Shown one piece after another: positions 56,443 through 61,276 of a stretch of 64,000 nt of DNA (its first letter is position 1; each line of letters opens with the position of its first letter). Both the position numbers and the translations under genes were made by a program. Below the pieces are notes generated by a model. It searched no databases, had not been told where the DNA came from, and worked only from the letters and a program-made list of their open reading frames with translations. The stretch is from Bacteriovoracaceae bacterium. GTDB lineage: Bacteria; Bdellovibrionota; Bacteriovoracia; Bacteriovoracales; Bacteriovoracaceae. The stretch spans positions 28,942 through 92,941 of the forward strand of contig JBFGZE010000004.1 in the NCBI GenBank assembly GCA_041586955.1. Direction: 5' to 3'.

Positions 56443-57279
56443 TTGAAAGATCTTTGGGTACCCATCTCAGGTGCAATTGCGCAACAGAAGAAAGTTGATA
56501 ATATCGCTAATAATGTTGCGAATGCGAATACACCTGGCTTTAAAAAAGACAGAATGGTCTTTAAGGAGTATCTCACGGCCCAAGAAAAAGGAGCTGATAT
56601 AGACCTTCCAAGTAAAGAGTGGGCCCCAGAAGATTTTTACCGCACCTACGGCGCAGAACAGGCCCAAGTCCAAGTTGATGGCAGCTTCACGATCCATGAA
56701 CAAGGTCAATTAACTCCCACGGGTAACCCCTTAGACATTGCCCTTAAAGGTCAAGGTCTTATTGAAGTGCTTACGCCAAACGGCATCCGCTATACACGCA
56801 AAGGTCTCCTAGGGCTAAACAAAAATGGTCTTCTCGTTACTCATGATGGAAATCTGGTTTTAAAAAGCTTTGAAGTTGATAAAGATAACCCCAATTTGGA
56901 TGAAGCGATCGAGTCTGTACCCAAAGCAATTGATCGTACAATTCAATTAAATGGCAAGAATGTCGCTATTAATATTCAGGGCGAAATATTCGTTGATAAC
57001 AATAGGGTGGCCGCACTCTCTGTTGTAGATTTTAAAGATATTCATGCTTTAAAAAAGGAAGGTAACTCTTTATTTATCAACGAAGATATCAATAACCTTT
57101 TACCTAAAAACCCAAAGGTAATGGTTCATCAGGGTTTTATAGAAGAGTCAAACGTCAACGCCATCGAAGAGATGTCTTCACTAATTAAAGCACACAGGCA
57201 ATTTGATAGCATTCAAAAAGTAATCAAGGCCTACGACAATATCTCAGGGAGAGGGGTCAATGAAATTTCAAAATTTTAA
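56443..57279 (+). CDS. flgF: Flagellar basal-body rod protein FlgF
   Basis: IANNVANANTPGFKK, TGNPLDIALKG, YTRKG, EESNVN. TTG start after AGGAGG. Confidence 0.9.
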   Translation: MKDLWVPISGAIAQQKKVDNIANNVANANTPGFKKDRMVFKEYLTAQEKGADIDLPSKEWAPEDFYRTYGAEQAQVQVDGSFTIHEQGQLTPTGNPLDIALKGQGLIEVLTPNGIRYTRKGLLGLNKNGLLVTHDGNLVLKSFEVDKDNPNLDEAIESVPKAIDRTIQLNGKNVAINIQGEIFVDNNRVAALSVVDFKDIHALKKEGNSLFINEDINNLLPKNPKVMVHQGFIEESNVNAIEEMSSLIKAHRQFDSIQKVIKAYDNISGRGVNEISKF

Positions 57280-58117
57280 TATATTTAGCCTTTTAGTTGT
57301 AATTACACTTCTACCAAGCTCCACCTTAGCGCAAATGCGTGCGCTGCATACAGCGGCAACAGGTATGGCCGCTCAAGAAACAAACGTCAATACGATATCC
57401 AATAATATCGCCAACCTTGGTACAACCGCCTATAAAAAAAGAAGAGCTGAGTTTGAATCACTTCTGTATGAAACCATTCAAGAAGCAGGGGCCAGGTCAA
57501 GCGGTGACTCCCAATATAGTGTCGGTCTACAAATAGGCTCAGGATCTAAAATCTCATCCGTTCGTAAAAATTTTACCCAAGGCTCACCCCAAGTCACCAA
57601 CAACCCTTTTGACTTGATGATTAATGGTGATGGTTTTTTTGGAGTTATGCATCCTTCAAATCAAATTTATTACACAAGGGATGGTAGCTTTAATGTCGAC
57701 AACCAAGGTCAAATCGTGAACAGTAACGGTAATAAGCTAATGCCTGTTGTAGTCGTACCTCCAAATACCATCAATGTTAGTATTTCAGAGAATGGACAAA
57801 TCGAAGCCTATATTCGCAACCAAACAGAGCCCGTAAATCTAGGGCAAATCCCCGTTTACACATTTGTCAATCCTGTAGGCCTTAAATCTATAGGAAAAAA
57901 CCTTCTCGAACCAAGCCAATCTAGTGGCGCCCCCATTTCAAATATCGCTGGTGAAAGTAATGCAGGAATTATTCAACAAGGTTTTCTCGAAGCTTCCAAT
58001 GTAAGTGTAATGAATGAAATGACGGGACTAATTAAGGCGCAAAGATCCTACGAAATGAATTCAAAAGTAATGAGAATTGCAGATGAAATGTTACAAACGA
58101 TAAACAACATAAGGTAA
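57260..58117 (+). CDS. flgG: Flagellar distal rod protein FlgG, with a predicted N-terminal signal peptide
   Basis: MRALHTAATGMAAQ, NNIANLGTTAYKK, LQIGSG, YTRDGSF, LEASNV, QRSYEMNSK; 25 extra N-terminal residues. Confidence 0.93.
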   Translation: MKFQNFNIFSLLVVITLLPSSTLAQMRALHTAATGMAAQETNVNTISNNIANLGTTAYKKRRAEFESLLYETIQEAGARSSGDSQYSVGLQIGSGSKISSVRKNFTQGSPQVTNNPFDLMINGDGFFGVMHPSNQIYYTRDGSFNVDNQGQIVNSNGNKLMPVVVVPPNTINVSISENGQIEAYIRNQTEPVNLGQIPVYTFVNPVGLKSIGKNLLEPSQSSGAPISNIAGESNAGIIQQGFLEASNVSVMNEMTGLIKAQRSYEMNSKVMRIADEMLQTINNIR

Positions 58118-58118
58118 A

Positions 58119-58985
58119 ATGATAAAAATATTAATCTCTATTTTTATTTGTGTATGCACTCCTATTATTGCGTGTGAGGTGTCTCTATTTCATACTTATA
58201 TTAACTTAAATGTCGAAGGTGATTCATTTATAAAATCACATAAAAATTGTAATTTAGATATAATCGCTAATATCAATGAGGTTCTCGCACAAAAATCAGG
58301 TATTGTTTCTACAGACCCTATCGCCAGCTCTCTGCGTTTTGACCATAAGGGCCTCACCTTAACACCCAAAACAATTAATATCTTGCTCTCGAAAGATCTA
58401 ATTAAGCAGGATAATAAAAACATAAAATTGGAAATTTTGAAAAGTGGTACTCTAAAGCGCCTGTTTGGTTTAGGTCCAAAAGATACTTATCACGCTGATT
58501 GCAAAGATTGTCAAAATCCCGGTGTCCACCATCTCGCCATCACAATCAATGGCCGTGAAGATCGCTCTACAAGAAAATTTTGGTTTAAAACTAAAACCTC
58601 TATCGAAAAAACAATTCTCTATGCGAACCGCTCAATACATTATAATACGCCTCTAAAAAAATCTTATTTCTCTATAAAAAAAATATTTGTTAGTGACCCT
58701 GAAAAATATTTCAGTAGCAACACTCCTATCCATTTTTTTAAAACATCCAGGACAGTTCAGTCAGGATTACCCTTGTTACAAAATGGAATTAGACCACGCA
58801 TGCTTGTTAAAAACAATTCGCCCGTGAAAGTAATCCTAAGGAATGGCGCACTTCAAATGAAATCCATTGGCACTGCCATGGGTTCTGGGAAACTTGATGA
58901 GATTATAACAGTTCAAAATACTAAAACAAAAAAGGCCTATAGTGGCAAAATTATTGATTTTAATAAAGTACTGGTTGAATTATGA
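58119..58985 (+). CDS. flgA: Flagellar P-ring assembly chaperone FlgA
   Basis: C-terminal LVKNNSPVKV...GTAMGSGKLDEIITVQN; signal peptide; position between flgG and flgH. Confidence 0.8.
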   Translation: MIKILISIFICVCTPIIACEVSLFHTYINLNVEGDSFIKSHKNCNLDIIANINEVLAQKSGIVSTDPIASSLRFDHKGLTLTPKTINILLSKDLIKQDNKNIKLEILKSGTLKRLFGLGPKDTYHADCKDCQNPGVHHLAITINGREDRSTRKFWFKTKTSIEKTILYANRSIHYNTPLKKSYFSIKKIFVSDPEKYFSSNTPIHFFKTSRTVQSGLPLLQNGIRPRMLVKNNSPVKVILRNGALQMKSIGTAMGSGKLDEIITVQNTKTKKAYSGKIIDFNKVLVEL

Positions 58986-59743
58986 ATAAAATTTTTCTTC
59001 TTCTATTCTTAATTGTTTCACTAAACTCTTGCGGTGGTTACGTCTCTAGTATGTACAAGGAGCTCGACAACAGTGAAAAAGTAAAACGGCGAAGACGGGG
59101 TAAAATGCCCTCTGAATTATCTATTTTCAGAAGAAAGAATCTATTAAAGTCAAAACAAGGAATTAGCACCAATGGCCATAGGCAATATGCGCCTCCAGTA
59201 AAAAGAAATTACTCAGGTCGAAAAACGAACTCCAGAAGAACAACAACCAGTGACCTCAACGACAATAATAACAGCGCAAGTCTTTGGAGTGGGGAAAGAG
59301 GAAATAATCAATTTTTATTCACACTGAATAAAGAGAAACGTTACGGGGATATTGTTCTCATCAATGTCCTTGAGTCGCTGAAAAAAGAAATACAAGTTGA
59401 ACTCCAAAGGGCATTTCCCAAAAGACGACCTCCTACAAAAGACAAGGCCGGAAAAGACGCTGGCAAAGAAGGCGAAACGACACCAAAAGAAGAAGTCGCT
59501 TCAACAGAGCCTGAGGCAAATGACTCGGAAGGCAATGGTAATTTTCATGATCGTATTTCCAGTATCGTTATAGAAGAAATCAACGCCGATCACCTTCTTG
59601 TTCGCGGTCGAAAACATATTTTATATCAAAAAAGAAAAAGATTAGTAGAAGTTCAAGCGCTGCTTTCAAGGCGGGATATTCAAGATGACGATACTATTAA
59701 TTCTAATAATTTAATCGAAAGCACCGTCACGATTATAAGGTAA
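58982..59743 (+). CDS. flgH: Flagellar L-ring lipoprotein FlgH (divergent)
   Basis: Lipobox LNSC, SLW, GDIVLINVLE, LLVRGRK, DIQDDDTINS. Confidence 0.78.
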   Translation: MNKIFLLLFLIVSLNSCGGYVSSMYKELDNSEKVKRRRRGKMPSELSIFRRKNLLKSKQGISTNGHRQYAPPVKRNYSGRKTNSRRTTTSDLNDNNNSASLWSGERGNNQFLFTLNKEKRYGDIVLINVLESLKKEIQVELQRAFPKRRPPTKDKAGKDAGKEGETTPKEEVASTEPEANDSEGNGNFHDRISSIVIEEINADHLLVRGRKHILYQKRKRLVEVQALLSRRDIQDDDTINSNNLIESTVTIIR

Positions 59744-59746
59744 TAC

Positions 59747-60763
59747 ATGAAGAAATTATTATTATTATTATTATTATTACTACTTAACGATCAATCTTTT
59801 GCAAAAAAGATCCGCCTCAAAGACCTTGTTCATGTAAAAGGAGTCAGGGAAAACCCCCTTATCGGCTATGGTTTAGTTATTGGCCTCAATGGTTCAGGCG
59901 ATGGAGGAGGAGAGATAATCGACACTTCCCTAAGAAGAATGTTTCAAAAACTAGGACTTAATCCGCAAAGAGAAATTGCTTCTAAAAATGTCGCCTCGGT
60001 CATTGTTACCGCCAAGCTTCCATCCTTTGGTCGAGTAGGTCAGAAACTTGATGTCACAGTCTCTTCAATCGGCAATGCAAGCTCTCTTGCGGGAGGAACC
60101 TTGCTTGTGACTCCCCTAAAAGGTGGGGATGGCAATATTTATGGTATTGCCACCGGACCACTATCCATTGGTGGGCTAGTCCAGGGTAGCGAATTCCCAA
60201 CCACAGGGCGAATTCCCAATGGCGGCACGATTGAAAAGGAACTTAATTTAAATTTTGATCAAAAGAAAGCTTTAAGGCTTGCTCTTAAAACACCTGATTT
60301 TACTAATTCTGCCCGTGTGGAGAAAACAATTAATGAGCAACTTGGCGGCAAATATGCCATCTCACGTGACTCCGCCACAATTGATTTAATTATTCCCACG
60401 TTCTACCAGCGAAAAGTCGTTAAGTTAATGGCGATTATCGAAAATATGGCCGTTAACATTGATGACAAAGCTCGTATCATTATTAACGAAAGAACCGGAA
60501 CAATTGTTTCAGGAGGGCAGGTCTCTCTTAGGCCAGTCGCAATCAGCCATGGAGACCTTAGTATCGAGGTAAAGGAAGATGGTGGGGGCAAAAACAAAAA
60601 GGGAGACAAACCCAGTAGGGTAATCTATATCAAAGAACAAACCACCCTTGGAGACCTGGTCAACAGCCTTAATGCTCTCGGCACTTCACCGGAAGACCTC
60701 ATCTCCATATTTCAAACACTTAAGAAGAATGGATCAATCATAGGTGATATAGAGTTTATATAA
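59747..60763 (+). CDS. flgI: Flagellar P-ring protein FlgI
   Basis: RLKDL, GVRENPLIGYGLVIGLNGSGD, SSLAGGTL, INERTGTIV. Confidence 0.96.
   Translation: MKKLLLLLLLLLLNDQSFAKKIRLKDLVHVKGVRENPLIGYGLVIGLNGSGDGGGEIIDTSLRRMFQKLGLNPQREIASKNVASVIVTAKLPSFGRVGQKLDVTVSSIGNASSLAGGTLLVTPLKGGDGNIYGIATGPLSIGGLVQGSEFPTTGRIPNGGTIEKELNLNFDQKKALRLALKTPDFTNSARVEKTINEQLGGKYAISRDSATIDLIIPTFYQRKVVKLMAIIENMAVNIDDKARIIINERTGTIVSGGQVSLRPVAISHGDLSIEVKEDGGGKNKKGDKPSRVIYIKEQTTLGDLVNSLNALGTSPEDLISIFQTLKKNGSIIGDIEFI
59756..59779 (+). repeat. (TTA)8 trinucleotide repeat in the FlgI signal peptide
   Basis: Eight consecutive TTA Leu codons after ATG-AAG-AAA. Confidence 0.9.
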
Positions 60764-60862: not shown

Positions 60863-61276
60863 GTGAAATTAGATAATAATCTACCAAAATCGATCCCGTT
60901 GCATTCTCAATCTAAAAAGATTGACGATAAAAAGTTTATTCCCACTCCCTATAAAAAAATCGCCGAATCTATGGAGCAACAATTTGCTGAACATATGCTA
61001 GAGGAAATGAAAAAGTCTCTTGATAGTGGAGAGAATTCTACGGCATCCACGTATTATAAGAACCTTCTAAACAAAGAACAGGCCAAAGGTCTCGTCCATA
61101 ATTCTCAATTAGGTATTCAAGATATGATTCTCAATGATATCTATCCCAAGAGATTAAGAAACGAAATTACATATAATCATCAAGTAAAAAAATTAGTTCC
61201 TCAAAAAAATAGTATTTCAATGGGTCCAAAACAACCTATTAAAATGGCCACTCAAAGGGAGATCCATGATGAATAA
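60863..61276 (+). CDS. flgJ: FlgJ-like rod-binding protein (no muramidase domain)
   Basis: KKIAESMEQQFAEHMLEEMKKS...YYKNLL...LGIQDMI; position after flgI. Confidence 0.75.
   Translation: MKLDNNLPKSIPLHSQSKKIDDKKFIPTPYKKIAESMEQQFAEHMLEEMKKSLDSGENSTASTYYKNLLNKEQAKGLVHNSQLGIQDMILNDIYPKRLRNEITYNHQVKKLVPQKNSISMGPKQPIKMATQREIHDE

Follow-up and report, generated by a model that had tools for sequence, protein, structure and literature searches.

Within a 64,000-nucleotide stretch of DNA from Bacteriovoracaceae bacterium (GenBank assembly GCA_041586955.1, contig JBFGZE010000004.1, positions 28,942 to 92,941 of the forward strand; hereafter the window), the flagellar gene flgG, which encodes the distal rod protein, is preceded by an in-frame leader of 24 codons with the features of a cleavable signal peptide of the general secretory (Sec) pathway. 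On comparative evidence we consider it likely that this FlgG is exported by Sec, cleaved by signal peptidase I (SPase I) and delivered to the distal rod from the periplasm. FlgG of most Halobacteriovoraceae, the family of marine predatory bacteria in which the database name of a close homologue places the organism, probably reaches the periplasm by general export in the same way and not through the flagellar channel. Three independent lines, namely leader architecture, relocation of the start signal and decay of an export-gate docking motif, strongly support reading the leader as a signal peptide. As a rule, the axial parts of the flagellum (rod, hook, junction and filament) pass through its own type III channel and are added at the tip, and only the rings and chaperones use Sec. 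A Sec leader on the sole FlgG would be an exception to this rule, a tube-forming rod subunit that could be supplied from outside the channel, and is relevant to the nucleation, capping and length limit of the rod. The features of the flgF-flgG region on which the argument turns are as follows.

56443..57279 (stop included), + strand: flgF, proximal rod protein, 278 amino acids (aa), TTG start, no signal peptide (open reading frame (ORF) list; Pfam Flg_bb_rod, LlgE_F_G_D1, Flg_bbr_C)
57247..57256, + strand: purine run GGGAGAGGGG, Shine-Dalgarno (SD)-like, serving ATG 57260 (sequence and duplex energy)
57260..57331, + strand: predicted FlgG Sec/SPase I signal peptide, 24 codons (sequence; architecture kept in 71/104 family genomes)
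57332..58117, + strand: distal rod protein FlgG in mature form, 261 aa beginning at Gln25, and its stop (Pfam; alignment to solved FlgG; single copy)
57335-57337, + strand: canonical-position ATG inside mature FlgG, without an SD site (sequence and duplex energy)
57452..57466, + strand: FESLL at the position of Salmonella FlgG F41-L45, candidate FlhB gate-recognition motif, intact (alignment and analogy)

The source genome (3.46 Mb in 194 contigs, 88% complete) contains a single flgG, the remaining genome-wide matches being FlgF and FlgE alone. Its frame is open from an upstream stop via ATG 57260 to the stop at 58117 and encodes 285 aa. Three Pfam families match above their cut-offs (PF00460, Flg_bb_rod, 3.6e-07; PF22692, LlgE_F_G_D1, 1.9e-23; PF06429, Flg_bbr_C, 5.9e-21), and solved FlgG chains match ORF residues 28-282 at E-values from 8.6e-66 to 2.7e-63; matches to FlgF chains (5.7e-17) and FlgE chains (1e-27 or weaker) are weaker. 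The gene lies after flgF and before flgA, flgH and flgI. It thus shares with the canonical FlgG of Salmonella (5wrh, 7bin, 7cbm, 7cgo, 7e80, 8wki) a fold family over the full length, an operon place (flgF-flgG-flgA-flgH-flgI) and a single copy. The difference lies at the N-terminus, where canonical FlgG starts at the Met preceding the D0 helix and the window FlgG has 24 extra residues of apparent Sec type.

These residues, MKFQNFNIFSLLVVITLLPSSTLA, are followed by QMRALHTAATGM (QMRALH…) and divide into an n-region, MKFQNFN with Lys2, a hydrophobic h-region, IFSLLVVITLL, and a c-region, PSSTLA. The best eight-residue Kyte-Doolittle mean of the h-region is 3.42. By the von Heijne rule, SPase I sites have small neutral residues at -3 and -1; the window leader has Thr and Ala, respectively, at these places (T-L-A) and Pro at -6, with a predicted cut after Ala24, the class of the signal peptide being assigned by rules. 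A crude rule-based screen flagged 11 of the 67 window ORFs, among them FlgA, FlgH, FlgI and FlgG and not FlgF, FlgK, FlgM or FlgN; it reports the first admissible site, so the cleavage positions it gives are unreliable. The Pfam Flg_bb_rod match begins at ORF residue 29, and in the alignment to solved Salmonella FlgG (28-282 to 4-258, E 8.6e-66) ORF residue 28 pairs with residue 4 of the latter, so that a cut after Ala24 leaves the N-terminus in register with canonical residue 1. At its very N-terminal end the precursor reads MKFQNFN, with the canonical hydrophobic start 24 residues further in and the leader itself hydrophobic too.

The signals for initiation point to the upstream codon. The purine run ends 3 nucleotides (nt) before ATG 57260, where the predicted duplex with a generic anti-SD sequence reaches -9.0 kcal/mol, compared with +0.1 kcal/mol at ATG 57335. 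The flgG frame from ATG 57260 shares its first 20 nt with the end of flgF (57260-57279). A sequence-only reading of this DNA had noted the purine-rich SD and the overlap at the upstream ATG, the want of any SD-like sequence at the canonical one, the resemblance of residues 1-24 to an SPase I signal, the register of the cut with the usual FlgG start, and the ordinary N-termini, free of any leader, of FlgF, FlgK and FlgL; the duplex energies, the alignment and the ORFs bear out all of these points. On the + strand the flgF-flgG junction has no promoter-like and no terminator-like site, and its RNA fold is unremarkable (z = -0.2); a regulatory RNA at this place, considered as a candidate, was dropped on these grounds. 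Four DNA sequencing runs from one study contain the locus, and no RNA run was listed for it.

The family was sampled with one genome per species, in a first set of 24 family genomes (the window's own included) with six from other families of the phylum, and then in 80 more family genomes. An in-frame N-terminal extension of FlgG was found in 71 of the 104 family genomes and none in the other 33. The trait is uniform within genera, with 32 of the 51 genera all-extension, 19 all-short and none mixed. Among the best 120 database homologues in a 5.8-billion protein collection, 89 have the extension and 31 do not, one of the short ones being a stub on a 989-bp contig. The sequence-only reading had looked to relatives for an extension conserved despite divergence, or else for stops and frameshifts within it; in all 71 genomes it is in frame and has its own SD site, with a small-x-small pattern at the canonical N-terminus.

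The leaders diverge freely in sequence while their n-, h- and c-region architecture stays constant. The 67 distinct peptides range from 15 to 31 aa in length (median 20). Lys or Arg occurs among the first eight residues in 63/67, with a mean net charge of +1.4, and the uncharged core has a median of 11 residues and a minimum of six; Asp or Glu falls within the core in 3 of 68 leaders. At position -1 the commonest residues are Ala (45), Gly (13) and Ser (5), at position -3 Ser (29), Ala (18) and Thr (5), and the commonest c-region is S-F-A. Of the 67 leaders, 61 obey the (-3,-1) rule precisely where they meet the canonical N-terminus; elsewhere inside the leaders it is obeyed at 194 of 792 positions (24%). 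Family-wide recurrence, together with adherence to the rule at the junction far above this background, confirms at the level of sequence that the leader is not a product of chance, and its features are those of predicted Sec/SPase I signal peptides. Twin-arginine (Tat) and lipoprotein signals were also considered and ruled out, with no RR in the first 12 residues (0/68) and no Cys at +1.

A side observation concerns where the leader starts. In the window (57252-57279) the precursor ATG sits within the conserved codons that end flgF (…N-E-I-S-K-F-stop), its frame shifted by one base. Several distant genera (e.g., L020, L027, L124 and P0002) share an n-region like MKFQNF(K/N), probably because their precursor ATG also lies within the conserved flgF end. 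In other genera the leader begins downstream of the flgF stop.

Start signals across the family separate the two classes of locus. At leader-bearing loci the upstream start has a median duplex energy of -6.8 kcal/mol (range -10.8 to -4.0, n=70) and the canonical codon one of -0.7 kcal/mol (range -4.7 to +1.9, n=65), whereas at short loci the canonical start has a median of -8.8 kcal/mol (range -13.6 to -2.9, n=33). The upstream start was taken as the best of a median of two candidates, and the control, which drew equally many in-frame sites at random, had a median of -3.5 and values of -5 or lower in 32% as against 94% at the observed upstream starts. By these predicted energies the SD site of leader-bearing loci has been relocated from the canonical start to the upstream one. 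The upstream codon is ATG, GTG or TTG in 70 of the 71 leader-bearing genomes. The remaining locus, L095 (G374), has an intact leader and a GAGG SD site at the right distance, with CTG where its congeners have TTG, which may be either a rare start codon or a sign of a decaying leader.

In six species (L021, L070, L082, L093, L101 and L124) both canonical codons are something other than ATG, GTG or TTG, and in these the primary product must include the leader. As far as sequence can show it, then, the leader is in frame, provided with an SD site, conserved in kind and not in sequence, and obligatorily translated in these six species. Met at mature position +1 is replaced by Ile, Leu, Val, Gln, Ser or Thr in 14 of the 67 distinct leader-bearing genes; the replacements are mostly hydrophobic, in keeping with a constraint on structure and not on initiation.

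The third line of evidence comes from inside the mature protein. Early type III substrates dock at FlhB (FlhB-C) via a short hydrophobic gate-recognition motif, which in FlgD is 36-FLTLL-40 (PMC8983047, excerpt). We placed the corresponding motif of FlgG at Salmonella F41-E-D-L-L45 by alignment and by analogy with FlgD. Its consensus we take to be F-x-x-x-hydrophobic. Position 41 is Phe in all 38 leaderless FlgGs (33 family, 5 outgroup), but in 40 of 72 leader-bearing ones it is not, the replacements being Ile (16), Ser (12), Thr (7) and Met (5). Position 45 is likewise non-hydrophobic in 0/38 leaderless and 24/72 leader-bearing sequences, and in the database set position 41 departs from Phe in none of the 31 short and 42 of the 89 leader-bearing homologues. 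Misalignment is not the cause of the differences at 41 and 45, as neither group varies at the flanking positions 44, 46 and 48. Mean entropy over positions 39-46 is 1.01 in leader-bearing and 0.31 in short sequences, and over positions 13-38 it is similar (0.73 and 0.63). The window FlgG has the motif FESLL and that of Halobacteriovorax marinus has IQDLS.

On a quick tree of moderate support, built without columns 1-48, position 41 changed at least eight times within leader-bearing rows and not once within short rows; the branch lengths sum to 17.6 and 12.9, respectively, so that an equal rate would predict about 5.9 changes for the latter, with a rough Poisson P(0) of 0.003. By alignment and by analogy with FlgD, the docking motif thus appears to decay solely in leader-bearing lineages.

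We propose the following sequence of events. In the window, and likewise in about two thirds of Halobacteriovoraceae species, flgG would be translated from the upstream start (here ATG 57260) into a precursor that begins with a Sec signal peptide of the classical type I, and this precursor would be targeted to SecYEG. SPase I would cut after Ala24, between T-L-A and Q-M-R, and mature FlgG in its canonical N-terminal register would be released into the periplasm, where it could polymerise from the periplasmic side on a proximal rod tipped by FlgF. FlgB, FlgC, FliE, FlgF, FlgD, FlgE, FlgK and FlgL would still use the flagellar type III channel, and hook and filament proteins would then pass through the finished tube as usual. 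The leader would seem to need removing: the narrow channel is lined by the inner D0 layer, of which the N-terminus of FlgG forms part. The in-silico tests proposed in the sequence-only reading favoured its suggestion of Sec delivery of the distal rod subunit, and the motif decay, which it had not foreseen, agrees with this; from these patterns we infer that the protein is targeted to Sec, cleaved, freed of its dependence on type III export and assembled from outside.

Leader and short forms have replaced one another repeatedly. A careful tree of 30 rows requires five leader changes, at least three of them forced by well-supported branches, as where the leaderless L024 is nested within the leader-bearing L015 and L027; a quick tree of 110 rows requires eight. 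Rooting with an outgroup puts leader-bearing lineages at the first branches of the family, with the short forms nested among them, albeit with moderate support and with the root not inferred. Every short form falls in a region of the tree that retains Phe at position 41. These patterns fit the hypothesis that the leader was gained once near the base of the family and that reversion was possible only while the docking motif survived. The joint account, in which a Sec-delivered distal rod would be the first natural bypass of type III export by an axial protein, with one basal gain, reversions only where the motif persisted and irreversible decay elsewhere, seems to us about evenly balanced between right and wrong. 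If true, it would describe an evolutionary ratchet between two export routes.

Several observations weigh against Sec delivery of the rod subunit and must be set beside the evidence above. The leader was gained or lost several times, which implies that both states are viable. Six of the 67 leaders break the (-3,-1) rule at the junction, with Pro, Tyr or Thr at -1 or other residues at -3. The window FlgG itself retains FESLL and a hydrophobic N-terminus, so without its leader it would still resemble a type III substrate. The Poisson value for motif change is rough and comes from a quick tree with moderate support, and a paired phylogenetic test of leader against motif found three supported pairs and gave p = 1, being underpowered. 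Leader-bearing and short lineages both retain a FlgJ-like rod-binding protein, which is present in 92 of 101 family genomes. The mature +1 codon is ATG in 53 of the 67 distinct leader-bearing genes, and a start-capable codon is found at +1 or +2 in 65 of the 71 leader-bearing genomes; with such codons retained, low-level internal initiation is possible, and in the window a minor internally initiated form is possible given ATG 57335 and the intact FESLL. Finally, we know of no mechanism by which rod subunits insert from outside.

The retained start codons invite the explanation that flgG makes two products, with internal ATG 57335 giving a leaderless, type III-exported rod FlgG and the Sec-exported leader form serving an accessory or regulatory role in the periplasm. 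The intact docking motif of the window and the repeated switching between leader and no leader, which shows that the mature part is able to function in both forms, agree with this. Against it, the internal codon lacks an SD site across the family and in the window, and six species have no start codon there and one flgG gene only. The docking motif that a type III-exported form would present is lost in more than half of the leader-bearing FlgGs (40/72), and the replacement of Met +1, mostly by hydrophobic residues, fits a structural constraint. We regard a two-product gene as unlikely.

Translation of the leader does not by itself make it a Sec signal. It might stay on the protein, or act as an enlarged N-terminal hydrophobic signal for type III export, such as has been described for rod and hook subunits, being hydrophobic and upstream of the docking motif. 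Yet a type III signal needs neither a basic n-region, nor an uncharged core of about 11 residues, nor small residues at -3 and -1 of the junction, which together make up the SPase I signature, and the gate-recognition motif decays in exactly the lineages that bear the leader. Judging from solved rods, about two dozen uncleaved hydrophobic tails of 20 residues at the D0 N-terminus would also point into the narrow central channel, and we consider a leader of this kind quite improbable. It is harder still to credit that the extension is untranslated, with ATG 57335 the true start and the upstream frame a by-product of intergenic sequence that is AT-rich and T-rich and of a preference of gene callers for long ORFs. 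Database records of a single Halobacteriovorax species do place the start of this gene differently, and the canonical Pfam domain begins only at residue 29. This account has to contend with an open frame, start codon and SD site in 70 of 104 species and a further one in which the homologous codon is CTG, with the loss of the canonical start codon in six species and the move of the SD site upstream, with signal-peptide features far above background (61/67 compared with 24%), and with a junction that has neither promoter- nor terminator-like sites on the + strand nor unusual RNA structure. Export of a cleaved precursor by Sec is the reading we prefer to all of these.

Canonical FlgG is an early flagellar type III substrate without a cleaved signal. 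The closest parallels to the leader described here lie in adjacent genes of the same operon, where FlgI (P ring), FlgH (L ring) and FlgA (P-ring chaperone) have N-terminal leaders like that of FlgG in kind and length. These are non-axial ring and chaperone proteins that assemble round the rod from the periplasm, whereas FlgG is an axial, helically polymerising tube subunit. A full-text literature search returned no description of a signal peptide on FlgG besides one table entry for Ca. Liberibacter asiaticus, whose FlgG (CLIBASIA_01315) has a predicted signal peptide and was PhoA-positive in E. coli (PMC5167687, Table 3). For that protein the excerpted text of PMC5167687 describes no N-terminal extension, conserved cleavage site or comparison, and the list of predicted signal peptides in the same excerpt also holds the cytoplasmic CTP synthetase and ribosomal protein L35. 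A term search of the Bacteriovorax marinus genome paper (PMC3526173) gave 0 occurrences of "flgG" and of "rod".

Leader-bearing and leaderless genera stand side by side in this family, with motif decay in the leader-bearing ones only, and so constitute a natural experiment. The proposal is also testable at the bench, as leader-bearing FlgG occurs in a cultured family member; the RefSeq FlgG of Halobacteriovorax marinus (WP_157765842.1) is the 283-aa leader-bearing form. Annotation of the flgG start is inconsistent across pipelines, with lengths of 261, 279 and 283 aa given for the same gene (Halobacteriovorax proteins P0121-P0129).

The flagellar operon of the window comprises flgF, flgG, flgA, flgH, flgI, a short flgJ-like gene, flgM, flgN, flgK and flgL by ORF list and Pfam. 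Further features downstream of flgG are as follows.

58119..60763, + strand: flgA, flgH and flgI, classical Sec-dependent flagellar genes directly downstream of flgG (ORFs; Pfam ChapFlgA, FlgH, FlgI)
58982-59743: flgH, lipoprotein-type leader (ORFs and Pfam)
60863-61276: flgJ-position gene, 137 aa (sub-threshold Rod-binding match)

In this genome FlgB, FlgC, FliE, FlgD, FlgE, FlgF, FlgK and FlgL have ordinary N-termini without a hydrophobic leader, and FlgA, FlgH and FlgI have signal or lipoprotein leaders, that of FlgI in the window being MKKLLLLLLLLLLNDQSFA before KK, with the S-F-A c-region that is also the most frequent one among the FlgG leaders. A leader on FlgF was looked for in relatives and was absent from all 30 of 30 loci, some of the longest-ORF starts used in this check being over-extended. 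Both export routes exist in the genome, which has SecY, FlhA and FlhB and two SPase I genes. The FlgH leader ends in …SLNSC, and about 75 residues rich in Arg, Lys, Ser and Asn separate the lipobox Cys (residue 17) from the Pfam FlgH domain, which starts at residue 96.

The protein at the flgJ position has a Rod-binding match (E 5e-4, 20.9 bits) below the cut-off of 25.1 bits and no muramidase domain. No co-variation of this rod-cap-like FlgJ with the FlgG leader was seen among the 101 family genomes; the nine genomes without a FlgJ-like match include incomplete ones (56-99% complete). In-frame stops occur in the FlgJ-like relatives of G017, G235 and G421.

Outside the family, open frames of at most 275 aa were found among the 52 non-family Bdellovibrionota matches listed (there are 197 further matches), which leaves no room for a leader in those 52. 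One genome from another family of the phylum, G033, encodes a FlgG (L032) with a plausible leader, MKSYLVIGVFITLMAFDALA, ending A-L-A before VGRAL and with GTG at the canonical codon, which could be an independent gain or reflect an older origin. Among the best 150 representatives of a 1.84-billion protein library, only P0151, the family's own 283-aa protein, matched over its full length from residue 24; 140 matched from within the first seven residues, and nine were truncated or multi-repeat proteins. The strongest library matches (best E 2e-147) also include three giant proteins, P0150 (3219 aa), P0152 (2471 aa) and P0154 (1246 aa), with 12, 6 and 3 stretches, respectively, that match the central D1 domain of FlgG (query residues ~80-220). 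The flagellar rod domain thus appears, from these matches, to have been reused as a tandem repeat in giant proteins.

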